64,000 nucleotides of DNA, from the NCBI GenBank assembly GCA_014803525.1, contig JAAVBP010000009.1, positions 5,995 through 69,994 of the forward strand, written 5' to 3'. The notes below the pieces were generated by a model that ran no database searches, was not told the origin of the DNA, and saw only the letters and a list, made by a program, of their open reading frames with translations. The position numbers were made by a program, and so were the translations under genes. The DNA is from a bacterium (lineage in GTDB: Bacteria; Pseudomonadota; Alphaproteobacteria; Rs-D84). This document shows positions 5,974-58,114 of the stretch, one piece after another (positions within the stretch are counted from its first letter, which is position 1; every line of letters begins with the position of its first letter).

Positions 5974-6336
5974 TTACTGTTCGCAAACTTCTACGGCATA
6001 CATCGCTTCGCCATCAACAGTCGGTTCCGCACCCAATACACGATAACAATTTACATCTACACCTTCAACTGTGCCAGCCGGAACAACGTCGATATAAACA
6101 TTTTCAACATCTGCGATGATTTCTTCGCTTGGGTTTACAGACAAGAACACCGCGTTCTTACCCGCATTGCGAATTGCATCAAATTCCGGAACAACCGGGC
6201 ATTTCGCCAAGAAATCACCACTTTCGCCAGTCGCGATTTTTTCGCATTTCTGACCCAGAACTTCAACCGAGTTATCTTTGCTGCAGCCAGCCAACAATGC
6301 GCCACACAGCAGCGGCAATACCAATAATTTTTTCAT
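5974..6336 (-). CDS. Small lipoprotein (signal peptide plus lipobox LAGC), function unknown
   Basis: MKKLLVLPLLCGALLAGCSK is a signal-peptidase-II-type signal. The protein is acidic with no recognisable domain. Confidence 0.5.
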   Translation of the reverse strand: MKKLLVLPLLCGALLAGCSKDNSVEVLGQKCEKIATGESGDFLAKCPVVPEFDAIRNAGKNAVFLSVNPSEEIIADVENVYIDVVPAGTVEGVDVNCYRVLGAEPTVDGEAMYAVEVCEQ

Positions 6337-6570: not shown

Positions 6571-6647
6571 GCGCCCTTAGCCCAGCTGGATAGAGCATCG
6601 GATTTCTAATCCGCAGGTCGCAGGTTCGAATCCTGCAGGGCGCGCCA
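6571..6647 (+). tRNA. tRNA-Arg (anticodon TCT), CCA encoded
   Basis: Cloverleaf: acceptor GCGCCCT/AGGGCGC, D arm GCCC-AGCTGGATA-GAGC, anticodon stem TCGGA/TCCGC with loop TTTCTAA, T arm GCAGG-TTCGAAT-CCTGC, discriminator G, then CCA. Confidence 0.9.
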
Positions 6648-6654
6648 TAAATTT

Positions 6655-6682
6655 AAACCGGCCTTGTGCCGGTTTTAATTTA
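6655..6682. terminator. Bidirectional intrinsic terminator (AAACCGGC-CTTGT-GCCGGTTTT)
   Basis: GC stem with T-runs on both strands, immediately 3-prime of tRNA-Arg and 3-prime of the minus-strand tRNA-like fragment. Confidence 0.6.
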
Positions 6683-6713
6683 TGCTGTGCGTCCCAGGAT
6701 TTGAACCTGCGAG
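6683..6713 (-). pseudogene. Degenerate inverted copy of the tRNA-Arg 3-prime half (T arm plus acceptor), a tRNA-like fragment
   Basis: The minus strand reads CGCAGGTTCAAATCCTGGGACGCACAGCA. The neighbouring tRNA-Arg 3-prime half reads CGCAGGTTCGAATCCTGCAGGGCGCGCCA. No matching 5-prime acceptor strand was found, so it is not an intact tRNA. Confidence 0.4.
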
Positions 6714-6889
6714 GCAAGCAGGTCGAACCGCCGCAAAAAGGCAGACGAACGTATGCCGGTTTGCATCAGCAAATTTTGCAAGGTCGGCGAAGCCAATCCT
6801 GCAGGGGCACCCAGCATGGCTAACAAATAATTTTTTTACTATTGAAAAAAAATTGTATTTCACATAAACTAATGCATTGAACAGCAGAG

Positions 6890-7099
6890 ATGTGTGTTCG
6901 GGGCCTTAGAAAGCCTTAGATCATTCGGTGCGAAACGGCATCGTAAATCTTTATATCCGGTGCCATCGCACCGTTGCAACCCCGGCAAGTGCCGGGGGGC
7001 CGTCGTTATAAAACAGGGTTCACCTAAAAGCGTCGGGAATCACTGATGATCTGATTTTTCTAACCCCCCGGCCACCAAATCTGTTTGGTGGTTTTTATT
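6890..7099 (+). promoter_or_regulatory. Structured leader upstream of the Cys-rich gene pair, ending in an intrinsic terminator (possible riboswitch or attenuator; class not recognised)
   Basis: Nested hairpins are GGTGCGAAACGGCA...TGCCATCGCACC and CCCCGGCAAGTGCCGGGG. The leader ends with CCACCAAATCTGTTTGGTGGTTTTTATTTT only 27 nt before the ATG at 7127, and a ribosome-binding site AAGGGGG follows the terminator. Confidence 0.35.
7072..7099 (+). terminator. Rho-independent terminator (CCACCAAA-TCTG-TTTGGTGG plus T5)
   Basis: Perfect 8-bp stem followed by TTTTTATTTT on the plus strand. Confidence 0.7.
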
Positions 7100-7126
7100 T
7101 TGATGCACAAAAAAAGGGGGACATCA

Positions 7127-7990
7127 ATGAACAAAATACTAATTATCGGCGCATTTATACTAATCCCATTTATTAGCCATGTATATGCGGGCGAACATAA
7201 GGCCGGTGCAGATAATTCGTGCTTTTACGACAGTAATCCAGGTAAATCGAAGTGGCACTACTATTTTTGCGGCAAGGAACCCATTGACAAAAACAACAAA
7301 ATAAAGTGCAGCGGCAAAGAGTACAAAGGCGCCGATAGACTAGACGGCGAAAAACCCAATGGAGATATGAAAAAACAGTTGATGAATCATGAAGTATTCA
7401 CTTTTACCACCAAAGAAGAAGATACATACTGTTGTTGCGGCGGGACAAGCAACACTGCCGGCCGCTTTGAAAAAGCGAAAAACACCCAGAACTGTTATAC
7501 AGACGACAAACCCACAGAAGAAATAAAGAACTTGGGAAATGGCAAGGCATGTAAAATGCTGACATATAAAACAGTGTGCGGCGATACACATACGATCGAC
7601 TGCAACACACCAGAAAACGAAACATGTGGCACAGGATACATATGGCGTAATAACGAATGCGCACCAATATGTGGAGGCGACACAGTATACGAATCGGAAT
7701 ACACAAACACATGCATAATATGCAAAACCACCGTATACCAGGGAATTTTTGGCGACGCGCAAAACAAATATTGCAAACGATGCGACAAAGACACCGAATT
7801 CTTTAATCGCACAACAAAACAATGCATAAAAAAATCAACATTGATGGCACATTCCAAATTGGCAATCCATGAATGCTGGCAATGCCCAACAACCAACACG
7901 CAAAAACAATGTGTCCAAGCGGTAACAAACCACAACACCACAGGCACCCCAATCCCCGACAACATAAAAAAGATATGCAACCTAACCTAA
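7127..7990 (+). CDS. Secreted cysteine-rich protein, paralogue A (family unknown)
   Basis: Signal peptide MNKILIIGAFILIPFISHVYA. About 30 Cys. Blocks shared with paralogue B: DNSCFY, YYFCG, FTF, CCCGGT, TYKTVCG.T.T..CNTPE.ETCGTGY.WR, C..C.TT.YQGI, YC..CD.DT.FF.R.TK.C and CWQC. Confidence 0.75.
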   Translation: MNKILIIGAFILIPFISHVYAGEHKAGADNSCFYDSNPGKSKWHYYFCGKEPIDKNNKIKCSGKEYKGADRLDGEKPNGDMKKQLMNHEVFTFTTKEEDTYCCCGGTSNTAGRFEKAKNTQNCYTDDKPTEEIKNLGNGKACKMLTYKTVCGDTHTIDCNTPENETCGTGYIWRNNECAPICGGDTVYESEYTNTCIICKTTVYQGIFGDAQNKYCKRCDKDTEFFNRTTKQCIKKSTLMAHSKLAIHECWQCPTTNTQKQCVQAVTNHNTTGTPIPDNIKKICNLT

Positions 7991-8101: not shown

Positions 8102-8923
8102 ATGAAATATTTGTCCGCTACAATTGCCGTATTAATGTTAATAACACCGGGGGCATTTGCCAGAAATTACAAGCACGCATCTGATAATTCGTGTTGGTAC
8201 GAAACAGAGTATGGCAAAAAAAGCACTGGCGACAACTGGGGATACTATTTCTGCGGGCCAATGGCACAAAAATGTGACGGAAAAAAGCACAAAGGGCATG
8301 ACTTTGCAAAATCTTATATGGATATGGAAATGTTTACGTTTAAGAATAAACGTACAAATGAACCCAATTCATTTTGCTGTTGCGGCGGCACTGAAACCAC
8401 TAATGGTCAATTTGTGGCCGCGGATTCAAAGTCAGGCAACTGCTTTGTCGGTGATCCCATAGAAGAAAAAAAGCCCCTGGGCAACAATGAATTTTGCACA
8501 AGACGAACCTATAAAACCGTTTGCGGTGGCACATATACTGTTGAATGCAATACCCCAGAACCCGAAACATGCGGCACGGGATACGTGTGGCGCGACACGA
8601 CAAAGTCATGCGCACAAATATGTACCGACGGCCAGGTGTTTGAAGAATATACAAACAAATGCATCTCTTGCGAAACAACCGCATACCAGGGAATCGCAGA
8701 TGAAATGCCCAAACTGTATTGTATGAAATGCGACAGGGACACCCAATTTTTTGACAGACAAACAAAAACGTGCGTATCCAAAAAATCAGGCAACTTTATG
8801 GAACGTCAAAAAATGATCCTGCAAAAATGCTGGCAATGCGCAACACTGGCAGACACCACAAAATGCGTTACAGCCAACGGGGAACCAACCGATTCCAGTG
8901 TTAAATCCAGCTGTCAGTTGTAA
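8102..8923 (+). CDS. Secreted cysteine-rich protein, paralogue B
   Basis: Signal peptide MKYLSATIAVLMLITPGAFA. Same cysteine framework as 7127..7990. There is no terminator between the two genes, so they are likely co-transcribed. Confidence 0.75.
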   Translation: MKYLSATIAVLMLITPGAFARNYKHASDNSCWYETEYGKKSTGDNWGYYFCGPMAQKCDGKKHKGHDFAKSYMDMEMFTFKNKRTNEPNSFCCCGGTETTNGQFVAADSKSGNCFVGDPIEEKKPLGNNEFCTRRTYKTVCGGTYTVECNTPEPETCGTGYVWRDTTKSCAQICTDGQVFEEYTNKCISCETTAYQGIADEMPKLYCMKCDRDTQFFDRQTKTCVSKKSGNFMERQKMILQKCWQCATLADTTKCVTANGEPTDSSVKSSCQL

Positions 8924-16555: not shown

Positions 16556-16882
16556 TTCTCTCTCCTGGGTATTTATTAAAATACAGAATGTTTTTCCATT
16601 TTAATAAAAGCCACATATATTTCAAGCAAAATTCACACAAAAATAACAGAGAATCCGAGTTAGCAATTTATTTCTATTACAAGGATACACGCAGGCTCGC
16701 ACCGCAACCGAGAGATCTGTTCAAACAGGACAAACAACAGTTTGCGTTCGAAAACAAGTAGGTGAGACAAATGCAATGTAGTCGAACCGTTACGGTTTCC
16801 ACGCAGACGCGAAGCGTCGAGAGAATCATGGGGCCCGTCCTAACATAAAATTAAAACCGCCCATACGGCGGTTTTAATTTTA

Positions 16883-16895
16883 TGGTCGGGGCGAC
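16883..16895 (+). other. 13-nt copy of the tRNA-Pro 3-prime end (TGGTCGGGGCGAC), att-like direct repeat
   Basis: Identical to 26714..26726, the CCA end plus acceptor stem of tRNA-Pro on the plus strand. Confidence 0.5.
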
Positions 16896-17084
16896 TATGA
16901 GTAGTTGAGGACAAGCCCAAAGGGCGCCGTTCGAAAAGTCACGAATGCCGCGCAGTCTCGGCGGGCATAGCACGACGGACGAGCGACCTGTTCGAACACA
17001 AACCAACGATTTGTTGTTCGTATTCAGGATTGTCACAACCAAATTTAATAAAACGGGCACCACTTGGTGCCCGTTTTATTAAAC

Positions 17085-17093
17085 CTGGTCGGG
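17085..17093 (+). other. Second, shorter copy of the tRNA-Pro 3-prime end (TGGTCGGGG) directly 5-prime of an X repeat
   Basis: Same orientation as the tRNA-Pro end. Preceded by the hairpin AATAAAACGGGCACCACTTGGTGCCCGTTTTATT. Confidence 0.4.
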
Positions 17094-17448
17094 GTGAAAA
17101 CAAGTAGGCAAGACAAGCAAAGCGCAGTCTAGCCGTCACGGTTTCCCCGCAGGCACGAATGTGCCGAGGGACACGTTCGAACATAGCAAACGACAGTTTG
17201 CGTTCGAATCATGGATCCGTCCTAACATAAAATTAAAACCGCTCATGCGGCGGTTTGAATTTTATGGTCGGTCAGTATTATGTTGCTACGAAACGAATAC
17301 AGGAACCCCATTTTCAGCGATTTACAGCGAATTTCGCACATCGCAACCACACAAAAACGCCATATTTCCGCACTTTTTATCCAAAAATCCAGTAAAATAA
17401 CAGGGAATTTATTATGTTATATCAAAAAAACAACCTATCTCTACAGAC

Positions 17449-20400
17449 TTATTTCAACTGGCGCAAATATTGTTTTATAAATGCTAGATTGTTCCTAAAA
17501 CCACCTAAACCGCCATCAGCATGAGTCTGTGGAGCATAGGGGAAATACTTGTTAATATCATTAATATCTATAGACTTAAAATCATTCAATGTCGCAACAA
17601 TACCTTGGCCTCCCAAACTTTCGCGTCCCATTGTTTCCAAGACCATTTCTGTATTTCTTAAATCACCAACTTCAGAATCCAAAATATTCGCAATTTGTTT
17701 TAATTCAACAGAATCATAGTGGCGAATAATATCATCACCGCCTTTATTGAACCAACCGTCGCGCCCAATACCGCCAAAGAATTCCCATTTACCGGTCGGA
17801 ACATTTGTTTTACCTGCGGTTCCCGTGGATATATAGAACGGTAATTTGATATCGCCAACTTTTACCATACATATTGCGCGCCCATGTATTGCGCCAACGT
17901 CACTAAGGCTTTCAATATATACTGGACGACCATGTATATCCCCCAAAGTACGACCAATTTTACTTTCCAAACTAGCGAGATTCGGATTTGAAATTGTGCG
18001 TGTTAAGGTACGGCCTCTGATGTTTAAGCCTTGTGCAATGGCATCATCACGCGTCATTGCAATTACGATATGGGGCGATGATTCACCATAACCAAGGGTA
18101 TCTAAGGCGACCGCAAAATCTCCTTTCGCAAAAGTAATATTTGCCATAGTTTCTGCAGTAGACGCTCTCATCGGGGACGATATATATACATTTTGATCTG
18201 CATATGTCTTATTTATGGGACCTGCCCTGGCCAAACGATTTTCAATAATCTGTCGATTGGGGGATGGCGCATTATTTGCGGGTTTGACTGTTGTGGCTGT
18301 TGCAGATTTAGTCGCACCAGCCGAATATTTCGGCTTCTGTATAAATGGGAGCAAGCTTTCATAGCTTGCTGAATCTTCTACTATTGCAACCATATATTGA
18401 TTACCGCGTTGTATTTTCCCAGCATAGATATTCTGTGCCTGCAGACGCGCAACTATTTTATCTGCCTCCTCTTCGGATGCGACGGCTTTACGGAACTGTC
18501 TGACACCAGCAGAATTTTGGTTGGCCGCAGATTCAAATAAATCATTCAGCCCCGTACGCGCACTCATATTATCAAGAGAGGTGTTTGTAGCACGGTTAGC
18601 AGATTTTAATCCGCTTAGATAATTTGTTATATCATCAGTGTTGCTTATAAACTGATAATTGCGCCCAGGTGTAATTTTCATATATCGATTAACCTCCTCA
18701 ACACTTATGGAACGAAAGTTTTCTATTACGGCCACTGGGCCACGCCCCCCCAAACTCTGACGCCCCAAGGTTTCCAAAACATATTCCGTATTTCGCAAAT
18801 CGCCAATCTTGTCATCTAACATTGTAGCAATTTGTTTTAATTCCTCAGACCCATAATGATTTAAAATATCGTCCAAATATCCCTTATTAAACCAACCAGA
18901 TTTCGGGTCAATTCCGGCAAAGAACTCCCATTTTCCTGTTGGAATATCCGTCTTGCCTGCTGTACCCGTGGATATATAGAATGGAATTTTTCGGTCACCA
19001 ACCTTTACCATGCATATCGGACGACCACTTATTACCCCAACATCATTAAGACTTTCAATATATACTGGCGTGCCATGTATATCACCTAATGTCTGACCAA
19101 TTTTACTATTCAATGTGGTCAGATTAGAATTGGAAATTTTACGCACTAATTTGTTGCCATTGACAGCTAGCCCTTGCGCTTCGGCATCAGCACGAGTCAT
19201 TGCGATTACTATCTCGTCCGCATTACTTGCTCCCTCTGTATTCAAACTTACCGCAAAATCCCCTTTAGCCCGAATGTGTCGTACAGCATCACTCGCATCA
19301 ACATTGGAGGCCGGCGCAGATATATATACATTATGTCCTTCATACACTTTGTTGACAGGACCAAGTTCTGCAATCTCGTCCTTAATAAATTCACGACTCA
19401 AAACGACGGGGTTCTCCGCCTTGCGTGCTTCTTCTGCTTTGCGAGCTTCTTCAGCTTTACGAGCTTCCTCGGCCTTGCGTGCTTCTTCAGCTTTACGCGC
19501 CTCTTCTGCTTTGCGTGCCTCTTCAGCTTTACGAGCTTCCTCGGCCTTGCGTGCTTCTTCAGCTTTACGCGCTTCTTCAGCTTTGCGAGCCTCTTCAGCT
19601 TTGCGAGCCTCTTCAGCTTTGCGAGCTTCCTCGGCCTTGCGTGCTTCTTCTGCTTTGCGTGCTTCTTCTGCTTTACGAGCTTCCTCGGCCTTGCGTGCTT
19701 CTTCTGCTTTACGAGCTTCCTCGGCCTTGCGTGCTTCTTCAGCTTTGCGAGCCTCTTCTGCTTTACGAGCATCGGTGGCTACTTCAGACTCACGATGTGC
19801 CTTGGATACATCATCAGCCTGGCGTTCCGCAACAACGGCCGTTTCAGCATTATTAACAGCATTCGCATTATCAGCGACATCGCCTGCACGGGATGCCGCG
19901 CGGACGGTATCATCCGCGTGGGATGCAGCACCGGCCGCACCGCGTCCCCCATTGCGCAATGCTGCGGTGGCACGCGGCAGTTTCTTAACACCCCAGCTGA
20001 CCACGCTCTTTATAATACTGGCCAATTGCAGTGTTAATCCAACCGCACGCCAAATCTCTTCGGGCTGCCATGATGACATTCCCTTATTATTTGCACCGGT
20101 AGATGTGCCGTTTTTCATTAAATCTTTATAAAACCGTGAATTTGGTTGTATCAACCCAGCCAAACGTGCCAATTCGTTATCAATTCCATTTACAACCGCA
20201 TCTGGCAAATCATTTGCCAAATCAGCCATACGCTGTAAATCACGTTTCAGCATACTTTCCGCGCACGATGCATCGTTGCACTTTCTGCTCTCTGCCAGAA
20301 ATTCATCACCGGCATTTTGCATACGGCGCGTAGCTTCAAATTCTATTGCGGCACCGGCTGTTTCCACTGCCAGTAACGCCAATGCCGGCGCGCCAGCACC

Positions 20401-22371
20401 CCCGGTTGCCACAGTCAACACCACGCCAGCCGTCGCACCTGCTGCAATAATCAACAATTGTTCGTTGTTTTGTAAATCTTTTGCATCCTCAGCACTGGGC
20501 ATACGACAAACCTCGCCATCCCAATATATAGTTTTACATTTTGCACATGTTGCAGCATTTGTTGCCATTAACCTGTTGCACGCCTCCTTGCCCAGGTACA
20601 TACATTCGCGACCGTTATACTGGCCCCCTAGCACCTTGCAATCTATATTTTGCAGACTGCCTTTGTGCAGAGCGTTCTCAAATTCCGACATATCGTCAAA
20701 TACAAAGTCAACCTCTTGATTGCCATTAATAGTGCAACGCAACACATCATCCGTGGACCCCTTGACACTATGCCCTTCAATCTTTGACATTTGACGTGGG
20801 TTTTGAACACAAGAAAAGCTTTTTACGCCACTTTTAACGTTCTGTACATATTTACGCAAACTGCCCTCTATTGTTGGGACCGCCTGAAACTGGATAGCAC
20901 CGGAATAAAAATAATACGAATCAATGCCCGGGATTTCTTTGATTTTATTCTTGCCGCCGCTGTCACCGCCAATTGTAACAAAGACACACTTTCCATTTTC
21001 CCACTTTACGTTATACCCAAGCTTTTTAGCGGTTTTTGCGAAGTTACCATTACACGTTGCAGCAGATATTTTTGTACACTCATTTATCCCCACGCCGCCA
21101 TATATTCCATGGCAAATTGAATACATTACCGATGTCTGAATCATTCCATCAAAAGATTCCTTCACATCATCGAATTTAAATTCGTAATAAACCACCCCGT
21201 CTGTTGTAGCGCATTTTATATAATCGTCATTCCAACTGGTTCGACGATCATTTTGACATACAATTGTATTGCCGTGTTTTACCCGCGCATATTCCTGGGC
21301 TAGTGCAATCGCCTGCATTATCTGAATATTTGTGCTGGAAAAGGCATCAGTTATGCAATATTCTTTCTTGCCGGTTTTGCCTTTGTCTGCACCACAAACC
21401 GCGCGATACATATTACTGTGCTGAAATTCGTCTGTTCCTGGATTACAGACACACTGGTTCTTTGAATGCTGAATAATACTGCCTGTATGTTTACAGTTAT
21501 TTGTATTTGCGTGTTGCTTGCAAAACGCAGTACACAACGCTAATGTATTATTTTGCGATGTTTCCGGATGCATACTGGTGGGACATGCAACGTTTTTGGC
21601 AGCACGCGCCATAGATTCCTTGGCTGCATCAACCTCTGTCGTTTGGGCGTTACAGATACATTCTTTGGTACTGTGCCGCATAACAACATTTGTCACCGCA
21701 CAATTTTCGCGTGTACCCTTGGCCTTGCAAAAGTCGAGACATTTAGCAGATGTATTATTGTCTTTGTTTTCTTTGTGTATGCTGCGCGCACAAAGTGGTG
21801 TTCCAACGGGTATAGGCGTATTGCACGCGCCACCACGCAAGTCATAATTTCCTTTGCACACCAACGCCATACAGGTACAACTGTAACTTTCGTTACGTTG
21901 AAATACAACCTCGCCCATGGCGATATGCGAAGAAGTACATATATCCCCAACACGGGTTTTATCTGTAATAGAGCTTAATTTGTTCGGATTTTTACCATTT
22001 TCATCCAATCCAGGACAAAATCCACCAAGCGCATTTTCATCTACTTCATTGCCGGTATTATTCAACAGTGCCGTCACAAAATTCCGACAGGTTTCAAAGC
22101 CGTTTGCGTGATATGTATTCAGGCCACCCGCACGGCATATTGCAAACAGGTCTGCGATTGATACGGCACCAGTTTCCGGATTCATCAATGTAATATACTT
22201 TTGCGCCATTGCTATCTGACGTTTATCATCAGTAATAAAATCCGGTATCGTAGCCGCCAGATTTTCAGCCGTAAATATATATTTTTGTTCGGCATCCGCA
22301 TAAGTCTTGGGCGCACCAAATGCCGACACTATCATAATCAGTGATAAAAACGCCAGGGCTATTTTCTTCAT
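17449..22371 (-). CDS. Giant secreted/surface multidomain protein (1640 aa) with a Cys-rich N-terminal part, a Gly/Ala-rich hydrophobic segment, about 20 KAEEAR repeats and a tandemly duplicated ~280-aa C-terminal domain
   Basis: Signal peptide MKKIALAFLSLIMIVSAFGAPKTYA. Two ~55-aa Cys modules (C..FCK.....NC...CNxxT.E). Hydrophobic LLIIAAGATAGVVLTVATGGAGAPALALLAV. C-terminal domain A (~aa 1000..1290) and domain B (~aa 1400..1646) share GDFAV, IVIAMTRxDA.AQGL, GDIHGxPVYIESL, ICMVKVGD, PFYISTGTAGKT, PTGKWEFF and GDLRNTE.VLET. The start is set to MKK at 22371; the track ORF starts 6 codons upstream. Confidence 0.8.
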   Translation of the reverse strand: MKKIALAFLSLIMIVSAFGAPKTYADAEQKYIFTAENLAATIPDFITDDKRQIAMAQKYITLMNPETGAVSIADLFAICRAGGLNTYHANGFETCRNFVTALLNNTGNEVDENALGGFCPGLDENGKNPNKLSSITDKTRVGDICTSSHIAMGEVVFQRNESYSCTCMALVCKGNYDLRGGACNTPIPVGTPLCARSIHKENKDNNTSAKCLDFCKAKGTRENCAVTNVVMRHSTKECICNAQTTEVDAAKESMARAAKNVACPTSMHPETSQNNTLALCTAFCKQHANTNNCKHTGSIIQHSKNQCVCNPGTDEFQHSNMYRAVCGADKGKTGKKEYCITDAFSSTNIQIMQAIALAQEYARVKHGNTIVCQNDRRTSWNDDYIKCATTDGVVYYEFKFDDVKESFDGMIQTSVMYSICHGIYGGVGINECTKISAATCNGNFAKTAKKLGYNVKWENGKCVFVTIGGDSGGKNKIKEIPGIDSYYFYSGAIQFQAVPTIEGSLRKYVQNVKSGVKSFSCVQNPRQMSKIEGHSVKGSTDDVLRCTINGNQEVDFVFDDMSEFENALHKGSLQNIDCKVLGGQYNGRECMYLGKEACNRLMATNAATCAKCKTIYWDGEVCRMPSAEDAKDLQNNEQLLIIAAGATAGVVLTVATGGAGAPALALLAVETAGAAIEFEATRRMQNAGDEFLAESRKCNDASCAESMLKRDLQRMADLANDLPDAVVNGIDNELARLAGLIQPNSRFYKDLMKNGTSTGANNKGMSSWQPEEIWRAVGLTLQLASIIKSVVSWGVKKLPRATAALRNGGRGAAGAASHADDTVRAASRAGDVADNANAVNNAETAVVAERQADDVSKAHRESEVATDARKAEEARKAEEARKAEEARKAEEARKAEEARKAEEARKAEEARKAEEARKAEEARKAEEARKAEEARKAEEARKAEEARKAEEARKAEEARKAEEARKAEEARKAEEARKAEEARKAENPVVLSREFIKDEIAELGPVNKVYEGHNVYISAPASNVDASDAVRHIRAKGDFAVSLNTEGASNADEIVIAMTRADAEAQGLAVNGNKLVRKISNSNLTTLNSKIGQTLGDIHGTPVYIESLNDVGVISGRPICMVKVGDRKIPFYISTGTAGKTDIPTGKWEFFAGIDPKSGWFNKGYLDDILNHYGSEELKQIATMLDDKIGDLRNTEYVLETLGRQSLGGRGPVAVIENFRSISVEEVNRYMKITPGRNYQFISNTDDITNYLSGLKSANRATNTSLDNMSARTGLNDLFESAANQNSAGVRQFRKAVASEEEADKIVARLQAQNIYAGKIQRGNQYMVAIVEDSASYESLLPFIQKPKYSAGATKSATATTVKPANNAPSPNRQIIENRLARAGPINKTYADQNVYISSPMRASTAETMANITFAKGDFAVALDTLGYGESSPHIVIAMTRDDAIAQGLNIRGRTLTRTISNPNLASLESKIGRTLGDIHGRPVYIESLSDVGAIHGRAICMVKVGDIKLPFYISTGTAGKTNVPTGKWEFFGGIGRDGWFNKGGDDIIRHYDSVELKQIANILDSEVGDLRNTEMVLETMGRESLGGQGIVATLNDFKSIDINDINKYFPYAPQTHADGGLGGFRNNLAFIKQYLRQLK
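19407..19771 (-). repeat. Coding 18-nt tandem repeat, about 20 copies, translating to (KAEEAR)n
   Basis: GCTTTGCGAGCTTCTTCA-type units with synonymous wobble variation inside the giant ORF. The plus-strand ORFs 19115..20131 and 19174..20037 are antisense artefacts of this repeat. Confidence 0.9.
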
Positions 22372-23324
22372 TTCAATACCCCCGTGCATTTTTCAGCGAT
22401 GGTTGCCACTTTCTTTATCGCGCTGATTTGCGTTGCATTAAATACCGTCGCCGTCGCGGATGCCACCGTGGTTGCACCAGACAGGACATTTGCCGCCGTG
22501 TTTAGATTTTTTTCTTTCTGTTTGCCCGCATCCGTATTATCGTTGCGCGTTTTATCCGTATTTGCGATTGCCGATGTTACCGTACCCGCCGCACCGGTTG
22601 TTGCGCCGACAATCGATGATATCATCGCACCTTTGGCCCGATTGTTTATCTTTGACACATCAACATAATCGTATTCAGCGCAGGCAGCGATAATCTCTTG
22701 CGCCTCTGATACGTCTTCGCCATTGACGCGTGCCTGCATCATAGACTGGCGCAGCTGACTTACCGACGCTTTGCAATCATCAATTTGCGCCTTTAAATCC
22801 TTATCGACCTTATTATTTCCGGCGATAATCGCGCCCGCCACATTGGTCGCAGTACTGCCCGCAATCAGGCCAGTTCGCCAATTACCCAGACGCTTTGATT
22901 GTTTGGTCAGTTTTTCAATTTCATCTTCGATGTCCCGCTTTTCGTCTTTGTTGGCGTCATAGTAATCTTGCATCCGGGCCAATATTTCCGCCCGATTGAT
23001 TTCCGGTGTCGGATTTCCGCGTGTTATTTCTTTTAATTTTTCCAACTCTTTTTCAAGATTTGCAATTTGTTTATCTTTGTTCACCTTTACAATACCAACA
23101 ACGGTTGCACCCGCACCGGCCGCCGTACCAACCGCAGTCACCGCCGTGTTTATTCCAGCCATCTTTTTCAAATCGGCTAATTCATCATCAATGCCAACAC
23201 ATGCAGTATATGTCGCCCGCAACGCATCATCCAATGACAAAATATCAGCATGCGCAACAAGCGGCATAAAACAACACAATAAAGCAACGAAACGCTCTCT
23301 CATTTTTCCCTGGCCGACTGGCAC
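22368..23324 (-). CDS. Secreted coiled-coil protein with four Gly/Ala/Thr-rich hydrophobic segments
   Basis: Signal peptide MRERFVALLCCFMPLVAHA. Segments AVTAVGTAAGAGATVVGIV, TGLIAGSTATNVAGAIIAG, ISSIVGATTGAAGTVTSAIA and LSGATTVASATATV alternate with charged coiled coils. It lies immediately upstream of the giant gene and its stop overlaps the giant gene's start. Confidence 0.6.
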   Translation of the reverse strand: MPVGQGKMRERFVALLCCFMPLVAHADILSLDDALRATYTACVGIDDELADLKKMAGINTAVTAVGTAAGAGATVVGIVKVNKDKQIANLEKELEKLKEITRGNPTPEINRAEILARMQDYYDANKDEKRDIEDEIEKLTKQSKRLGNWRTGLIAGSTATNVAGAIIAGNNKVDKDLKAQIDDCKASVSQLRQSMMQARVNGEDVSEAQEIIAACAEYDYVDVSKINNRAKGAMISSIVGATTGAAGTVTSAIANTDKTRNDNTDAGKQKEKNLNTAANVLSGATTVASATATVFNATQISAIKKVATIAEKCTGVLK

Positions 23325-23406
23325 ATCTATACGAAGGGATTGTTGTAATATTAAATGGGTTGATTTTCCGACTTTTTTTGTTTATAATTTTGGAACAATA
23401 AAAGGT

Positions 23407-24003
23407 TCATATTTTTGAAACAAGGAACCTGGTTATCGTCGGTGGACTGACCCGAATTTTACGTGCAATTTCCCGCTTTGATACACCTGCCGCATACATA
23501 TCCAGAATTAAATTCTCGTGTCCATCTAATATATGGGTCGGATTACGCCCGCCCGCCGGTCGCCCCAGTTTTACACCCCGCATTTGCAGGACGGATAGTG
23601 CCTCCTTGGTTCGCTGGGCGATTAAATTTCTCTCTATTTCTGCGGACAGGCCGAATGCAAACGCTAAAACCTTTGACTGAATATTGTCCCCCAATTCATA
23701 CCCATCTTTGACCGTGTACAGGCGTGCGCCAATTTTCATACAATGTTCCAAAATCCGCATAATCATGAACATCTTTCGCCCAAGACGCGACAGTTCGCTG
23801 CATATTATCACGTCACCCGGTTGCAATCGGCGCAGCATACCACCTAGCGCACGTTCCTCTGGCTCTTTTGTCCCAGATATGCCGGAATCTTCTATATATT
23901 TATCTATGCAAATTCCCAGTTTCGCGGCTTTCGCCTCTATCCCTAGTTTTTGATTTGCGCAGTCTTGTTTGTCGGTTGAAACCCGAATATAGCCATATAT
24001 CAT
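23407..24003 (-). CDS. Small serine recombinase (resolvase/invertase, Hin/TnpR type)
   Basis: MIYGYIRVSTDKQ catalytic serine motif. SELSRLGRKMFMIMRILEHC. C-terminal HTH. About 60% identical to the 57479..58114 protein. Confidence 0.85.
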   Translation of the reverse strand: MIYGYIRVSTDKQDCANQKLGIEAKAAKLGICIDKYIEDSGISGTKEPEERALGGMLRRLQPGDVIICSELSRLGRKMFMIMRILEHCMKIGARLYTVKDGYELGDNIQSKVLAFAFGLSAEIERNLIAQRTKEALSVLQMRGVKLGRPAGGRNPTHILDGHENLILDMYAAGVSKREIARKIRVSPPTITRFLVSKI

Positions 24004-24449
24004 TCAGTGCTCCTTTTATTATCAAATCCAAAGAAATGGTTGCCGGACATTTTGTGGCCGCATATTTCTGTCGCAATCGCCGACAATGTTGAATAAGGCT
24101 TGCCGTTATATGTAAACCTATCATCTGCCAGAACGCGCACGACATGTTCCGTACCACGGAACTTTTTCACTAATTCAGTTCCTGGCTTTAAATGATATTT
24201 AACCTTGTGCGAGCGTCCGCTATATAACTCCGGATCCTTGGCATATTTGTACAAGCGGCTCAAATGTCGTGATTCTATTTTGTATCCCATTTGTTCGCAT
24301 TGAATTTTGTGCCATAAAGGTTTCATCTGGGGCTTGCCGCCAGTAAAGTAATGTCCCCATAATTGCGTTATCTTTTCCTTAGGCATCGCCCGTAAATCCG
24401 CCATATTTTTAGGCAATTCGCCGCAATATTTTCTTAATGCCATAGCCAT
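24000..24449 (-). CDS. Hypothetical protein translationally coupled to the resolvase (possibly a DUF2924-type recombinase partner)
   Basis: 149 aa. Its stop overlaps the resolvase start (ATGA). Ribosome-binding site AAAAGGAC. The DUF assignment is from memory of the recombinase-adjacent family, not verified. Confidence 0.45.
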   Translation of the reverse strand: MAMALRKYCGELPKNMADLRAMPKEKITQLWGHYFTGGKPQMKPLWHKIQCEQMGYKIESRHLSRLYKYAKDPELYSGRSHKVKYHLKPGTELVKKFRGTEHVVRVLADDRFTYNGKPYSTLSAIATEICGHKMSGNHFFGFDNKRSTE

Positions 24450-24559
24450 GTCCTTTTTGTTGCAATTACTGCTTACGTCGCCCCATAAGTCAAGTTAATA
24501 AACCACTGGACTTCTCTCGCTTTGTAAGCACTAATGCCAGCACCCAAGAGGAAAAAAAC

Positions 24560-26191
24560 ATGCAAATTGTTAACTGTGCCGTATATGTTAGAAAATCCAG
24601 CGAACGCGGATTAGACCAAGAATTCAACAGTCTGGACAACCAGGAATTGGCCTGTAAATCATATATCGCATCCCAAACATTCCAAGGATGGCAGTATTTC
24701 AAAACATATAGCGATGGCGGTATCTCTGGCGGGACAATGGCGCGACCGGGGCTGCAAGAAATGCTGAGTGATATAAAAACAGGCAAGATTCAATGCGTAT
24801 TGGTGTATAAAATTGACCGCCTGTCACGCAGCATTTATGACTTTAAGAGCATGATGAAAAAGGATTTTGAACCACATAACTGCAATCTGGTCAGCATTAC
24901 ACAGAGTTTTGACACAAACACAGCCATGGGGAAATTGACACTGAACATGCTACTGTCGTTTGCAGAGTTTGAACGAGAGGTTGCCAGTGAACGCGTCCGT
25001 GATAAAATGCGCGCAACTAAATCAAAAGGCCTGTGGGTCGGTGGGGTGCCGCCGCTGGGCTATGACGTACAATTTGGAAAATTGGTTCCAAATGAAACCG
25101 AGGTTCCATTGGTCAAAACCATATTTGAAACGTATCTAAACAGCACCGGTATACTGGACTGCCGCAATCGTATTGCCGCACTTGGCATTCGGGGCAAAGC
25201 CTGGCAAACCCGAAAAGGCGAAATGCGTGGTGGCCGGGAAATGACCGCGAATATCATTGAACGGGTTTTGAAAAATCAAATTTACCTGGGCAAACTGCCC
25301 AACAAATCAACCGGCGAAGTCTTTGATGGTAAACACCCAGCCATAATCGACAAAACGCTGTTTGACGCAGTCCAAGCTAAAATCCAAGCAAACAACAATC
25401 ACCCAGGTTCCGGATATCGCCTTGGGACGGCATTATTACACAACAAAATACAGACCGCAGACGGAACCATCCTAAAGAATAAATCCGGCCAGAAAAACTA
25501 TAACTCACACCGGCGGTACAGATACTATTACGGTGGCGGCGTATCCCTGCCTATGGGGGATATTGACGCCATTGTAATCGATACAATAAAAAAGTTCCTG
25601 GATTCAGACCTGGGGTGTTTTAATGATGAGAAACGACTATGCTTCAAACAAACCGCGTTTTCACCAGAGCTTATCGCCCCAATGATTGCCAAGATTGTGT
25701 ATTATTGCCAAAAACTGGTAATATTTATAAACATTGCAGACCTAGGATACCTGACCCAATTCCGCAACACAGGTCCTATAAATACAAATAACCATCCAAT
25801 GCCGTGTGCTATATCGGCCGATGGAAAATACGCCATAATTGAGACAGACGTTATTATATCCAGTCGAACATGCATAAACCATCGAAACAGTGGCGGCAGT
25901 CGGGATTTATTAACCAAAACCGAAAACGCAACAATGTTAATCAAGGCCCTGGGATACGCATGGAAATACAAGCAACAATACGAAAGCGGAACCGGAATTC
26001 GTGAACTGGCCGAAACAGAAAAACGCGACCAGCGCACGATTTACAAATACTTAAATCTGGCATACCTGTCGCCACGGATTATCAATGATATCATGGACAG
26101 CAAAATCCCACCCCACATCAACCTGCAGACCTTGTTCCAGATTGCAAGTAAGTATGATAATTTCGCGGAACAGGAACGGGAGTTTTATTAA
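24560..26191 (+). CDS. Large serine recombinase
   Basis: Resolvase-type N-terminal domain (VYVRKSSERGLDQEFNSLDNQ, DRLSRS). Recombinase domain GLWVGGVPPLGYDV. Long C-terminal extension. GAGGAAAAAAAC ribosome-binding site. Divergent from the resolvase pair. Confidence 0.85.
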   Translation: MQIVNCAVYVRKSSERGLDQEFNSLDNQELACKSYIASQTFQGWQYFKTYSDGGISGGTMARPGLQEMLSDIKTGKIQCVLVYKIDRLSRSIYDFKSMMKKDFEPHNCNLVSITQSFDTNTAMGKLTLNMLLSFAEFEREVASERVRDKMRATKSKGLWVGGVPPLGYDVQFGKLVPNETEVPLVKTIFETYLNSTGILDCRNRIAALGIRGKAWQTRKGEMRGGREMTANIIERVLKNQIYLGKLPNKSTGEVFDGKHPAIIDKTLFDAVQAKIQANNNHPGSGYRLGTALLHNKIQTADGTILKNKSGQKNYNSHRRYRYYYGGGVSLPMGDIDAIVIDTIKKFLDSDLGCFNDEKRLCFKQTAFSPELIAPMIAKIVYYCQKLVIFINIADLGYLTQFRNTGPINTNNHPMPCAISADGKYAIIETDVIISSRTCINHRNSGGSRDLLTKTENATMLIKALGYAWKYKQQYESGTGIRELAETEKRDQRTIYKYLNLAYLSPRIINDIMDSKIPPHINLQTLFQIASKYDNFAEQEREFY

Positions 26192-26496
26192 CTCTTGAGA
26201 TTGGACTTTATAAAATCAATAACACGCGTTTTATATTCGTCATCACCATTTAAAACACTGATATTTAGCCGTGTATCAAAATTTGTCTCAGCCGAGCCTT
26301 CTTGCACATCAACAACCCTTATTACAACCTCTGGTTTCACCCCTGTTTCATCCTGGTAAGTCAACGCCAACTGCTTGGCCCTTTCATTAAGTTTGTTCTC
26401 TATTATTGACGGATTTTGCTTTATTTTTTGTTTTGCTGCATTCAGTATATCTTTTTCTATTTTTTTTGAATCAAATTTTGTTGTAACTTTAAACAT
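26188..26496 (-). CDS. Hypothetical small protein (102 aa), convergent with and overlapping the large serine recombinase
   Basis: AGGAGAAAAC ribosome-binding site 6 nt before ATG (MFKVTTKFDS). Lys/Glu-rich. No recognised domain. Confidence 0.45.
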   Translation of the reverse strand: MFKVTTKFDSKKIEKDILNAAKQKIKQNPSIIENKLNERAKQLALTYQDETGVKPEVVIRVVDVQEGSAETNFDTRLNISVLNGDDEYKTRVIDFIKSNLKS

Positions 26497-26713
26497 GTTT
26501 TCTCCTATATTTATCACGGTACATATAGGTATTTGAGCTAACATTTTCAACCCCAATTGACTCCGCGAAAATGGGCATTGTATACCTTCTGGTATATTAT
26601 GGGCAGATTTGCGTATATTCGGTGAATACCAGAGTCAATGCATTTCGCAAATGCCCGCGTTTTGCGGCGGACACATAAAAAAAGCCGCGACAATGCGCGA
26701 CCTTTCTAATTAC

Positions 26714-26790
26714 TGGTCGGGGCGACATGATTCGAACATGCGACATCTTGCTCCCAAAGCAAGCACTCTACCAGACTGAGCTACGCCCCG
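26714..26790 (-). tRNA. tRNA-Pro (anticodon TGG), CCA encoded
   Basis: Minus-strand cloverleaf: CGGGGCG acceptor, D arm, anticodon stem CTTGC/GCAAG with loop TTTGGGA, T arm GCATG-TTCGAAT-CATGT, acceptor CGCCCCG, then A and CCA. Confidence 0.9.
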
Positions 26791-32260: not shown

Positions 32261-32725
32261 ATGGCAGGCAGCATAAATAAAGTTATACTGGTTGGAAACG
32301 TAGGACAAGATCCCCAAGTTCGCACAATGAACAGTGGTCAAAAAGTGGTCAGTTTTTCACTGGCGACATCGGAACGCTGGCGCGACCGTCAATCTGGCGA
32401 ACAGAAAGAACAAACCGAATGGCATCGCGTTGTGATATTTAACCCGAATCTGGTAGATGTTGCCGAACGCATGTTGCAAAAGGGAACGAAACTGTACCTG
32501 GAAGGTTCATTGAAAACCCGCAAGTGGCAGAACCAGCAAGGCATGGACGTTTATACAACCGAAGTTGTATTAAATCCGTTCATGGGCCAGATGGTTATCT
32601 TAAGCGGTGTTAAGGCAATGGATGGTGGCATGCCGGGCGAGTATGGCCCTGCCCCGTCTGCGGCGCCGATGGCCCCACGTGAAGAAATTTCTGTGGCCGA
32701 AATCGGCGACGACATTCCGTTTTAA
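32261..32725 (+). CDS. ssb: Single-stranded DNA-binding protein
   Basis: OB-fold N-terminus NKVILVGNVGQDPQVR. Gly/Pro-rich linker. Acidic tail ending DDIPF. Confidence 0.9.
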   Translation: MAGSINKVILVGNVGQDPQVRTMNSGQKVVSFSLATSERWRDRQSGEQKEQTEWHRVVIFNPNLVDVAERMLQKGTKLYLEGSLKTRKWQNQQGMDVYTTEVVLNPFMGQMVILSGVKAMDGGMPGEYGPAPSAAPMAPREEISVAEIGDDIPF

Positions 32726-32750
32726 ACGGAATGGAGGAGCCGAAGGGGAT

Positions 32751-32829
32751 GAAAACAAGTAGGCAAGACAAGCGATAGCGTAGTCGAGCCGTCACGGTTT
32801 CCCCACAGGCACGCAAGTGCCGAGGGACA
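32751..32829 (+). repeat. Third copy of the X repeat element, inserted at the ssb 3-prime end with a 13-bp duplication
   Basis: GAAAACAAGTAGGCAAGACAAGCGATAGCGTAGTCGAGCCGTCACGGTTTCCCCACAGGCACGCAAGTGCCGAGGGACA. Flanked by GACATTCCGTTTT (32711..32723) and GACATTCCGTTCT (32826..32838). Confidence 0.6.
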
Positions 32830-32845
32830 TTCCGTTCTAAAAAAA

Positions 32846-57510: not shown

Positions 57511-58114
57511 CACGATGTTTTGAAATACCGTTTGTTTCCATAAATCGGTTAAGCGTATCACGATGGACACGTAACCGCCTGGCTATTTCATATTTGCTGT
57601 TCCCGTCACTTAGCTTTTGCACAATATATTTCTCACGACCGGTTAGTTTGCATGTATTTGCACTGCCACGCGGTCGGCCGACCCGCTTTCCTTCGGCCCT
57701 GATACGCGCCAACGCCTCTTTCGTTCGCTGGGAAATCAGGTTACGTTCTATTTCAGCTGATAACCCAAAGGCAAACGCCAAAACCTTGCTGGTAATATCC
57801 GACCCCAGACGATAGTTATCTTTTATTGTCCATACGGCCGCACCAACATCCATGCAATGGTGCAAAATACTCATAATCTGTAATAAATTACGCCCTAACC
57901 TAGATAACTCGGACGCGATTATCAAATCATCTTTCTGAATTTTCTTCAAAAGACGCCCCAGTTTTCTTTTATTTAAATCGGACACCCCAGATATTGTTTC
58001 TTCTATCCAGCTGTCTATTTTTAGATCATTTTTCTTGCAAAAGCATTGTATTTCAAATTTTTGGTTTTCCGTGGTCTGATGATCAGTAGATACACGAATA
58101 TACCCATATACCAT
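57479..58114 (-). CDS. Small serine recombinase (resolvase/invertase), paralogue of 23407..24003
   Basis: MVYGYIRVSTDHQ. The SKVLAFAFGLSAEIERNLI block is identical to its paralogue. C-terminal HTH. Its 3-prime end overlaps the S8 gene stop by 32 nt. Confidence 0.8.
   Translation of the reverse strand: MVYGYIRVSTDHQTTENQKFEIQCFCKKNDLKIDSWIEETISGVSDLNKRKLGRLLKKIQKDDLIIASELSRLGRNLLQIMSILHHCMDVGAAVWTIKDNYRLGSDITSKVLAFAFGLSAEIERNLISQRTKEALARIRAEGKRVGRPRGSANTCKLTGREKYIVQKLSDGNSKYEIARRLRVHRDTLNRFMETNGISKHRAKRRLRAGLE

Follow-up and report, generated by a model that had tools for sequence, protein, structure and literature searches.

The 64-kb window analyzed here (positions 5,995–69,994 of contig JAAVBP010000009.1, from the alphaproteobacterial lineage Rs-D84) was found to carry several copies of a short element, named X, which is a 73–75-nt module with two covarying helical domains (P0/P1 and P2/P3) linked by invariant strands. 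X is read tentatively, with a probability of about 0.45, as the conserved non-coding hairpin cassette of small selfish elements located 3' of tRNA genes in the Candidatus Enterousia clade. The likeliest account is that X represents a small selfish element in a version without its gene, the link being to a miniature GIY-YIG nuclease whose genes are preceded by a second conserved structure, Z. X and Z are two undescribed structured motifs. X is selected for its structure and resembles a mobile element, and it is neither a terminator nor, in all likelihood, a repetitive extragenic palindrome (REP); the mechanism given for it below is a proposal.

The 13-mer GAAAACAAGTAGG matches exactly three times in the window, at 16750, 17096 and 32751, all on the plus strand; the chance expectation is ~0.95 matches even with two mismatches permitted. 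A profile made from the three copies finds them again at E = 1e-23 to 4e-26, together with a hint of a fourth. The members are as follows.

16750–16822, plus strand: X copy 1, with GAAAACAAGTAGG, helix P1, CCGTTACGGTTTCC, hairpin P3 (GACGC GAA GCGTC), GAGA, then GA; 94.8 bits.
17096–17169, plus strand: X copy 2, with P3 of GGCAC GAAT GTGCC, then GA; 96.3 bits; fold z = -3.5.
32751–32825, plus strand: X copy 3, in the 3' untranslated region (UTR) of ssb, with P3 of GGCAC GCAA GTGCC, then GA; 93.7 bits; fold z = -3.9.
16902–16984, plus strand: Xvar, a diverged fourth member which retains GTAG, GAGGACAAGC..GCGCCGTTCGA, GTCACG, CGCAG, a long hairpin and CGAGCGA.

The three copies had been claimed in a reading of the window made from its letters (the sequence-only reading), and all were found, with their ends corrected to the positions above; for copy 2, which had been placed at 17095–17172, the presence stood and the coordinates did not. 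The shared start, central motif and terminal hairpins claimed for them are present in all three as stated. The X copies are mutually 77–91% identical. One motif reads CCGTTACGG in copy 1 but CCGTCACGG in both of the others. Between the P3 stem of copy 1 and that of copies 2 and 3, two-sided differences occur at two of five pairs. When compared with shuffled sequences, copies 2 and 3 fold better and copy 1 does not (z = -0.3). Three copies alone are insufficient to prove covariation, which was therefore tested on a set of 41.

Species-representative genomes were scanned with the pattern GAAAACAAGTAGG-N25-35-ACGGTTTCC, giving 27 stretches, nearly all from metagenome-assembled genomes (MAGs) of uncultured gut Alphaproteobacteria, with two Candidatus Enterousia species among them. 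Metagenome contigs, scanned less strictly, gave five further loci, all with the same architecture; the X-bearing loci fetched by DNA pattern are numbered L001–L032. No match to the pattern was found among viral contigs, phage records or plasmids, and exact-pattern scans of the collections recovered X only from MAGs of one gut alphaproteobacterial clade, at one to three matches per MAG (the window holds three to four copies in 64 kb). Three CAZJGX01 contigs with X (L004, L010 and L025) belong to a bin labelled uncultured Muribaculaceae and are probably mis-binned, because their tRNA/X architecture matches that of the alphaproteobacterial loci.

A structure-blind MAFFT alignment of 29 X copies, analyzed with RNAalifold, gave four helices.

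P0: GAAA/UUUC.
P1: GGC-GA-GAC..GC-loop-GC..GUC-GA-GCC, with a tandem G.A internal loop.
P2: CCC/GGG.
P3: a variable hairpin.

The strands joining these helices (AACAAGUA, GUCACGG, GCAG and CGA..GGGAAU) are invariant, and in the X of locus L049 a wholly different P1 sequence (GAUUGUGG..CCACAAUC) was found between unchanged invariant strands. A covariance model built from this alignment detected 41 X copies at E < 1e-3 in ~25 MAGs. Among these, 98.0% of cells pair compared with 87.8% in shuffles, and two-sided changes were seen at 14 of the 19 pairs against 5.7 expected. The covariation score was 0.315 against 0.122 for shuffles, with none of 500 shuffles scoring as high and slid-partner controls reaching at most 0.071. 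It should be noted that the 41-copy alignment was fitted to the model and is hence biased in favour of the structure; the same helices had emerged independently from MAFFT and RNAalifold. Xvar of the window scored 21.9 bits with this model over 16888–16989 and has an orthologue in L019 at 37 bits; relatives of Xvar retain GUAG, GAGA(A)CAAGC..GCGC.G(U)UCGA, GUCAYG and CNCAG-hairpin-CGAGSGA.

The sequence-only reading had claimed compensatory changes in the hairpins, selection for secondary structure and an origin other than random duplication, and had called for a wider copy search with a covariation alignment. The 41-copy set bears out these claims, with stems of both hairpin domains covarying across many genomes and GA boundaries that are constant. 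An Rfam scan, which it had also suggested, gave no family match to X. With 4227 models at the gathering threshold, only tRNA or tmRNA was detected in the window and 29 loci, and at E <= 10 the region 16556–17449 gave solely chance hairpin matches to terminators, with no ribozyme or intron family. A test of strand asymmetry from wobble pairs was weak, with few informative pairs and with P3 lacking strand bias. Short peptide open reading frames (ORFs) within X were not conserved.

The position of X is precise. It sits exactly between C56 and G57 of a copy of a tRNA T-arm (GGTTC/GA..X..GAGG/GA-N59-TCC, the slashes marking these junctions), and every X has GA at both borders. An intact tRNA gene on the same strand lies at most ~350 nt upstream of X in 29 of the 41 copies; one copy is inside a full tRNA and two adjoin tRNA-Pro in inverted orientation. 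Thirteen tRNA species were found with X (three Ser, Gly, Lys, Glu, two Gln, Pro, three Arg and Tyr), and at 12 of these X has the orientation of the tRNA. The order within a unit is tRNA ending in CCA, terminator hairpin flanked by A/T, T', tight turn, L', GA, X, GA and R, with the terminator hairpin often recurring after R. T' is a degenerate reverse complement of positions 76 to 49 of the local tRNA and starts with TGG, L' corresponds to positions ~49–56 and ends in GGTTC, and R corresponds to positions 59–76 of the same local tRNA. R is an exact copy (17 of 17) in 11 of 22 loci and near-exact in nine more, while T' is never within four mismatches. The nucleotide N59 after X also matches the local tRNA, with GAGTCC at Lys, GATTCC at Gly and GAATCC at Ser and Arg. 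The unit order places X in the T-loop of a partial tRNA copy. As the 3' segment of the target is triplicated in a direct-inverted-direct arrangement, the functional tRNA is spared. The copy inside a full-length tRNA is that of L002, where X interrupts a promoter-bearing tRNA-Gly(ccc) and removal of 73 nt restores a gene called by ARAGORN; this genome has an intact paralogue 1 kb from the interrupted gene.

In 12 units (Arg, Ser, Lys and others) T' reads GA instead of TC opposite the insertion dinucleotide, so that any fold-back of T' on R has tandem G.A opposite the insertion point. Such T' segments were recorded in L003, L004, L007, L017, L020, L021, L024–L027, L031 and L040, and at 32726–32750 of the window. 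X units occur at orthologous tRNAs in several species, for example at tRNA-Gln in at least seven MAGs, and in L026 and L027 X, P3 and much of T' are common to two different tRNA-Arg genes. Cassettes in tandem meet at GA, as in L005 (L'-GA-Xvar-GA-X-GA-R) and in the window (X copy 2-GA-W3-GA-R, where W3 is a 34-nt cassette described below). The same tRNA can also have different cassettes in related genomes: tRNA-Arg(tct) is followed by two X in L027 and in the window by a sister unit with a core of ~80 nt, named Y (GGCAAGCAGGTCGAACC...), which is unrelated to X and set in the same frame.

6571–6647: tRNA-Arg(tct).
6648–6816, plus strand: sister unit at this tRNA, comprising terminator, T' (6683–6712), Y core and R (6795–6816).

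In L013 (152–4353), the X unit at tRNA-Gln continues into the 3' end of another tRNA (GAATCCGGTGCGCCGCGCCA), after which comes an operon for 319-aa and 1005-aa proteins; this arrangement suggests an exchange between X units at different tRNA loci.

X copy 3 has a non-tRNA target, as it lies within the 3' UTR of ssb, ahead of the terminator, in a unit with the following flanks.

32726–32750, plus strand: T', an inverted copy of the ssb 3' end with both TC as GA (ACGGAATG-GA-G-GA-GCCGA), then AGGGGAT.
32826–32840, plus strand: R, GACATTCCGTTCTAA, which repeats the final 15 nt of ssb (32711–32725) in direct orientation; the true terminator comes next.

The other 17 of 21 positions of this T' are an exact reverse complement. 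The 115-nt unit at the ssb 3' end is present in the window and in L053, and the site is uninterrupted in L054–L056, in which SSB is 92% identical and the rho-ssb synteny is kept. An exact look-up of the SSB protein gave filled sites only, the empty site being reached through the 92%-identical homologue. Since the ssb copy has the same layout, a tRNA is not required for the formation of such a unit. X is read as mobile because of this pair of filled and empty sites and because of the differing cassettes at one tRNA. Of the three ideas in the sequence-only reading, that of a mobile element or the end of a miniature inverted-repeat transposable element (MITE) thus came closest, and to it are now added the precise insertion point, the 13 tRNA species with ssb and the empty ssb site.

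The link to a nuclease was found in the surroundings of X. ORFs for GIY-YIG proteins of 80–81 aa lie within 600 nt of X in L008, L014, L015 and L029, and with L040 and L049, which were retrieved through the GIY-YIG protein alone and not by DNA pattern, there are six loci with such an ORF beside or within X units. The protein family has 134 close homologues, and the nearest solved relatives of the 80-aa protein are the SLX1 structure-specific nucleases and the UPF0213 proteins. Wherever upstream sequence exists, the gene stands directly behind a tRNA (Thr, Tyr, Gln twice, Gly) or tmRNA, one of these tRNA contexts being in the cultured Amorphus coralli; in L008 and L040 it stands behind a degenerate copy of a tRNA 3' end instead. 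The order in L040 is ORF, T', L', GA, Xvar and R (Xvar at 33.4 bits, E = 3e-6). In L049 it is tRNA-Gln, terminator, T', L', 5' part of X, R, Z, ORF, 3' tail of X, R and terminator, X scoring 56.4 bits (E = 2e-12) and its 3' tail reading GTGCC..GAGGGAAT. After the ORF of both L049 and L008 only the last 14–20 nt of X are found, followed by R. As L008 also has a second unit of R, Z, terminator, T', L' and X, it looks like an intermediate between the ORF-bearing and ORF-less forms. In L043 and L044 a 21-nt repeat of the tRNA end lies on either side of the nuclease element. The 2-nt 3' overhangs left by GIY-YIG enzymes such as I-TevI and Eco29kI agree with joints bounded by GA. Literature searches on GIY-YIG proteins in connection with tRNA, the T-loop or tmRNA gave no relevant result.

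The conserved leader Z begins immediately behind the CCA of the tRNA or tmRNA and spans the ~100 nt up to the 80-aa GIY-YIG ORF. It reads CCA/NNCUUCGCG...CUUCG-GNNUGG-CARG-CCANNC...CGCGAAG.., followed by a second hairpin. Ten of 29 Z pairs covary; one helix begins at A76 of the tRNA, and the inner hairpin repeats the CCA/NNN junction. Z also had no Rfam match.

L008, 2396–2500 and 2857–2975: Z leaders.
L033, L036, L040, L041, L043 and L047–L050: further Z leaders.

In the window, the region 16688–17282 around X copies 1 and 2 could be fully parsed as a mosaic of X-like units, hairpins, copies of the tRNA-Pro 3' end and W cassettes, W being a 34-nt cassette (NNNGTTCGAAC, small hairpin, GTTC) located between X units and R at GA joints. 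Around the X members given above, its parts are as follows.

16688–16715, plus strand: X-like 3' tail (CACGCAGG..CCGAGAGA) lacking the 5' domain, read from the sequence.
16716–16749, plus strand: W1 cassette, a short hairpin between GTTC-GA repeats, immediately 5' of X copy 1.
16823–16845, plus strand: R after X copy 1, a degenerate direct copy of the tRNA-Pro 3' end (GAATCATGGGGCCCGTCCTAACA).
16846–16882, no strand: bidirectional terminator-like hairpin between R and T', at the centre of an R/T' palindrome.
16883–16901, plus strand: T' before Xvar, an inverted copy of the tRNA-Pro 3' end (TGGTCGGGGCGACTATGAG) that abuts Xvar.
16987–17020, plus strand: W2 cassette (W type) after Xvar, followed in the parse by an R-like segment.
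17042–17085, no strand: terminator-like hairpin, homologue of the hairpin directly behind tRNA-Pro in L019.
17086–17095, plus strand: T' abutting X copy 2, a truncated inverted tRNA-Pro 3' end (TGGTCGGGGT), the minus strand of which is the far-end repeat of an island, with att core CCCCGACCAG.
17172–17205, plus strand: W3 cassette (W type) between X copy 2 (GA) and R (GA).
17206–17227, plus strand: R after X copy 2 and W3, a degenerate tRNA-Pro 3'-end copy.
17228–17264, no strand: terminator-like hairpin between R and T'.
17265–17282, plus strand: T' at the array end, a degenerate inverted tRNA-Pro 3' end (TGGTCGGTCAGTATTATG).

The tRNA-Pro from which R and T' of this array derive lies 9.6 kb away and is separated from it by an island of this length. 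In the close relative L019 the corresponding array directly follows tRNA-Pro without interruption, and X is inverted relative to the tRNA. The features of the island are given below.

26714–26790, minus strand: tRNA-Pro(tgg), source of the R and T' of the array and attachment point of the island.
17283–26713: island, with genes on the minus strand.
26706–26722 and 17086–17097: island junctions, both with CCCCGACCAG (CCCC-GA-CCAG), X abutting the far core.
24560–26191, minus strand: large serine recombinase.
23407–24003, minus strand: Mpi-like invertase.

Further island genes encode a 122-aa ORF, a DUF2924 protein, a 318-aa protein and a 1646-aa repeat protein. The 1646-aa ORF (17449–22389, minus strand) contains ~29 tandem 18-nt units encoding KAEEAR at 19343–19863 and an internal 1.14-kb repeat (17766–18065 vs 18909–19208, 74% identity), and it is homologous to the 1005-aa ORF of L013 that adjoins the X unit at tRNA-Gln. 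Another serine invertase of the Mpi family, 54% identical to that at 23407–24003, is encoded at 57539–58114 (minus strand), giving three serine recombinase genes in 64 kb. Just beyond the tRNA-Pro X array of L019 (3610–7951) lie a type II-C cas9 (1108 aa, with HNH and RuvC) and convergent cas2 and cas1; this block appears to be another island at the tRNA-Pro hot spot, and no repeat array was detected within the L019 locus. Elsewhere in the window, 7085–7990 and 8102–8923 are tandem paralogous ORFs of 301 and 273 aa (41–42% identical); neither had a Pfam domain match, and the first was also without an NCBIfam match.

In the proposed mechanism, ORF-less X units would be miniature derivatives or passengers of the nuclease-encoding elements, and would spread by copy-repair once T-loop-like DNA has been cut at GA with a 2-nt stagger. 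Microhomology for movement between tRNA species could come from GGTTCGA and GAATCC, the two universal halves of the T-loop, with survival only of insertions in a duplicated, dispensable 3' segment. The hairpins may be kept since the element must fold when single-stranded, either as repair or replication DNA seen by a structure-specific nuclease or as a transcript. The direct-inverted-direct triplication resembles what strand-displacement synthesis with two template switches at a hairpin might produce, and such a model would account for the intact tRNA always surviving.

A number of observations weigh against this account of X. The GIY-YIG gene is absent from the 64-kb window and is nearby at only six X-bearing loci; as X and GIY-YIG genes both favour tRNA 3' flanks, their co-occurrence could partly be coincidence. 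X copies within one genome have diverged (77–91% identity in the window), and the same units at orthologous tRNAs would indicate long residence and purifying selection and not recent bursts, a conservation which would fit a host function too. X is inverted relative to the tRNA at tRNA-Pro, and the wobble-pair test of strand was uninformative. The 2-nt GA joints suit a serine recombinase equally, and three such genes are present in the window. The origin of T' and its systematic TC-to-GA change are unaccounted for by the model, and we know of no repair or recombination mechanism that matches GA opposite GA together with a direct-inverted-direct triplication. Finally, cleavage, excision and transcription of X units are hypothetical.

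Given the diverged copies, the conservation at orthologous tRNAs, the window without the nuclease and the uninformative strand test, a structured RNA serving the host stays a serious rival, although an unlikely one. The T'-X-R unit would here form a tRNA-like fold of several helices ending in the acceptor strand of the tRNA itself and CCA. Transcription running on from the promoter of the tRNA or of ssb would yield it, and tRNA enzymes would process it; it would act as a small RNA, as the sequence-only reading had also proposed, or as a processing or stability element, or as a decoy for a particular tRNA 3' end. Sequence and structure are strongly conserved at orthologous tRNAs, and invariant joining strands are typical of functional RNAs. 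Other features that agree with it are the co-orientation with the tRNA at 12 of 13 tRNA species, the location of copy 3 ahead of the ssb terminator, the minimum-energy folds of whole units, which often pair T' with R in a cloverleaf-like form, the exactness of R beside a drifting T', and the few wobble pairs on the X strand, such as U-G in P1. However, a strong terminator stands between the tRNA and X with no promoter visible, the CCA that would stay unpaired in a tRNA mimic is itself paired with T', and X is antisense to the tRNA at tRNA-Pro. P3 has no strand bias, no Rfam relative was found, and the unrelated cassettes Y, W and GIY-YIG occupy the same slot. It is rather more doubtful that X is the attachment-site arm of islands whose recombinases act at tRNA 3' ends (serine recombinases crossing over at GA or tyrosine integrases crossing over in the T-loop), the short units being scars or minimal cis-mobilisable remnants. 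Integration at tRNA genes classically leaves direct repeats of the tRNA 3' segment that begin in the T-loop, and this footprint is matched by the units. All cassette joints are a 2-nt GA, the dinucleotide at which the large serine recombinases TnpX and TndX cross over. The 9.6-kb island with its large serine recombinase and Mpi-like invertase lies between tRNA-Pro and X copy 2, its junctions both carry CCCC-GA-CCAG with X abutting the far core, and the cas9 island of L019 and the island of L013 are at the same kind of site. Against this, no recombinase gene was found within 4 kb on either side of X at the other L001–L032 loci, a 75-bp cassette would be unable to circularise as duplex DNA, and hairpin covariation is not expected of duplex binding sites. 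One recombinase would have to accept 13 tRNA species as well as ssb, and X interrupts the T-loop instead of flanking an intact core. When the units were compared with tRNA-targeted elements in general, the direct repeat of the tRNA 3' segment was present and a recombinase gene within the ~150-nt units was not.

Two further explanations are regarded as highly improbable. The first would make X a REP or REPIN element served by an HUH transposase of the REP-associated tyrosine transposase (RAYT) type, a thought raised by the invariant GTAG (AAGTAG) immediately 5' of the imperfect P1 palindrome in the aligned copies and by the intergenic location of X near gene 3' ends and terminators. The copy number is nevertheless low (three to four per 64 kb, one to three exact-pattern matches per MAG), the family is common to several genera and not genome-specific, inverted X doublets are lacking, and the fixed T-loop position and tRNA-end duplications are foreign to REP. 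Pfam scans of 25 window ORFs, a subset of those present, gave no transposase or RAYT domain. The sequence-only reading had offered a terminator-like REP; this was not supported, as no T-run follows the X hairpins, the copy number is low and separate neighbouring hairpins are the real terminators. In an intrinsic-terminator test P3 of X was followed by GAGGGAAT without a T-run, and terminator-like sites were found at 16846–16882 and 17228–17264. The other explanation, a tiny intron-like or self-cleaving T-loop RNA that would be removed from the transcript and whose P3 loop would hold the GIY-YIG ORF, in the manner of endonuclease-bearing group I introns, draws on the X of L002, exact removal of which restores an otherwise perfect promoter-bearing tRNA-Gly(ccc), and on ORFs flanked by the 5' and 3' parts of X (L049) or followed by the X tail (L008). 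P3 is variable yet always a closed hairpin, as expected after ORF loss, and the junction GAYGAG..CGAAA resembles a hammerhead core. Yet only one of 41 copies is in a full-length tRNA, in a genome with an intact paralogue 1 kb off, C3 and U4 of the hammerhead core never occur together, scans as loose as E <= 10 gave no ribozyme or intron family, and 75 nt is far below the size of known self-splicing introns. Working splicing would, moreover, make the sparing of an intact tRNA unnecessary.

A number of named candidates were rejected. For a hammerhead ribozyme, the junction (A/C/G)(G/U)GAYGAG..CGAAA lacks C3 and U4 together and gave no cmscan match, and the topology is wrong, the cleavage-site strand being separated from stem I by P2/P3. 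Group I and II introns require a catalytic core of at least 200 nt against the 73–75 nt of X, and no intron model matched at E <= 10; a likeness to domain V of group II introns (GAGCCGT..ACGGTT) was dismissed because this stretch is the covarying 3' strand of P1. An integron attC does not fit, as the flanks are GAGAAC and GTTCGAA, position 4 is not a purine and RYYYAAC/GTTRRRY cores are absent. tmRNA, two-piece tmRNA and a tracrRNA or other Cas9 guide were set aside, since L019 alone has Cas9 beside X, as one more island there. The proteins of TnpB/IS607-type guide RNAs and IS110 bridge RNAs were absent from the loci scanned. The operon of the 318-aa and giant proteins was rejected as effector, being island cargo with an inconsistent position and no domains, and so was a large serine recombinase or invertase as general agent, being absent within 4 kb of X from all the other L001–L032 loci.

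Of the known systems, homing-endonuclease elements, which comprise free-standing or intron-borne GIY-YIG genes and their ORF-less derivatives and go through a cycle of gain, decay and loss, share with X a small nuclease gene at a highly conserved target, gene-less structured derivatives at the same site, an ORF beside or inside a closed hairpin and joints that fit a 2-nt staggered cut. They differ in that the X-linked protein is only an 80-aa catalytic domain of SLX1/UPF0213 type without a DNA-binding domain, that the target is a tRNA T-loop and 3' end triplicated as direct-inverted-direct, and that X has no intron fold and its homing is hypothetical. MITEs and Rickettsia palindromic elements (RPE) are likewise short, non-coding, hairpin-forming and dispersed, and insert by or in conserved genes including RNA genes, whereas X inserts at a single fixed point, is present in few copies and lacks terminal inverted repeats belonging to itself, the inverted T' and R that flank it, with GA on both sides, being copies of the local target; we presume that they have no sequence similarity to X. 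Integration sites and arrays at tRNA genes, such as the Prochlorococcus tycheposons, also have direct repeats starting in the T-loop, serial cassettes behind one tRNA and a restored tRNA, but X units are ~150 nt long and without integrase, interrupt the T-loop copy, have an extra inverted T' and occur at 13 tRNA species. In folded single-strand sites (integron attC, the attP hairpin of CTX phage) structure is in part conserved over sequence, cassettes form arrays and an imperfect fold-back carries fixed crossover mismatches, as GA faces GA in X units. X differs from them by its lack of GTTRRRY/RYYYAAC cores and of a link to IntI or Xer, by arms that are target copies and by being mostly sequence-invariant. 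REP/REPIN-RAYT systems have in common with X the GTAG directly 5' of an imperfect palindrome and the intergenic location near terminators; X is, in contrast, low-copy, multi-genus, free of doublets and tied strictly to tRNA 3'-end copies, and no RAYT was found among the 25 window ORFs scanned. Elements with a GA crossover, namely Tn4451 with TnpX and Tn5397 with TndX, have GA at both ends of the inserted DNA, as X does. The window island, which carries a large serine recombinase, joins tRNA-Pro at CCCC-GA-CCAG, and X stands at its end, but no recombinase lies near the other X loci, 75 bp is too small for a duplex circle and hairpin covariation is unexpected of duplex att sites.

A bolder view, which we consider very unlikely, is that T'-X-R and Z are nucleic-acid guides or scaffolds for the bare 80-aa SLX1-like GIY-YIG domain, which would cut tRNA 3' ends or the ssb end. 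It is prompted by a structured core flanked by ~20 nt identical or complementary to the target, and if true it would amount to guided or structure-templated homing of a kind not known before. In a weaker variant of it, X could be a minimal T-loop intron.

tRNA genes are classic landing pads of mobile DNA, their known occupants being integrase-bearing islands and phages. If X belongs to a selfish element as proposed, the universal T-loop and CCA end would be exploited by a structured cassette of 75 nt and by a nuclease gene of 80 codons, both of which always leave a working tRNA. If true, these would be among the smallest nuclease-linked selfish elements described, the universal T-loop sequence would be their route for hopping among all tRNA species, and X and Z would be two new structured motifs for RNA and DNA-structure databases. 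It would also account for the mosaic intergenic repeats and island hot spots in these poorly known gut Alphaproteobacteria.

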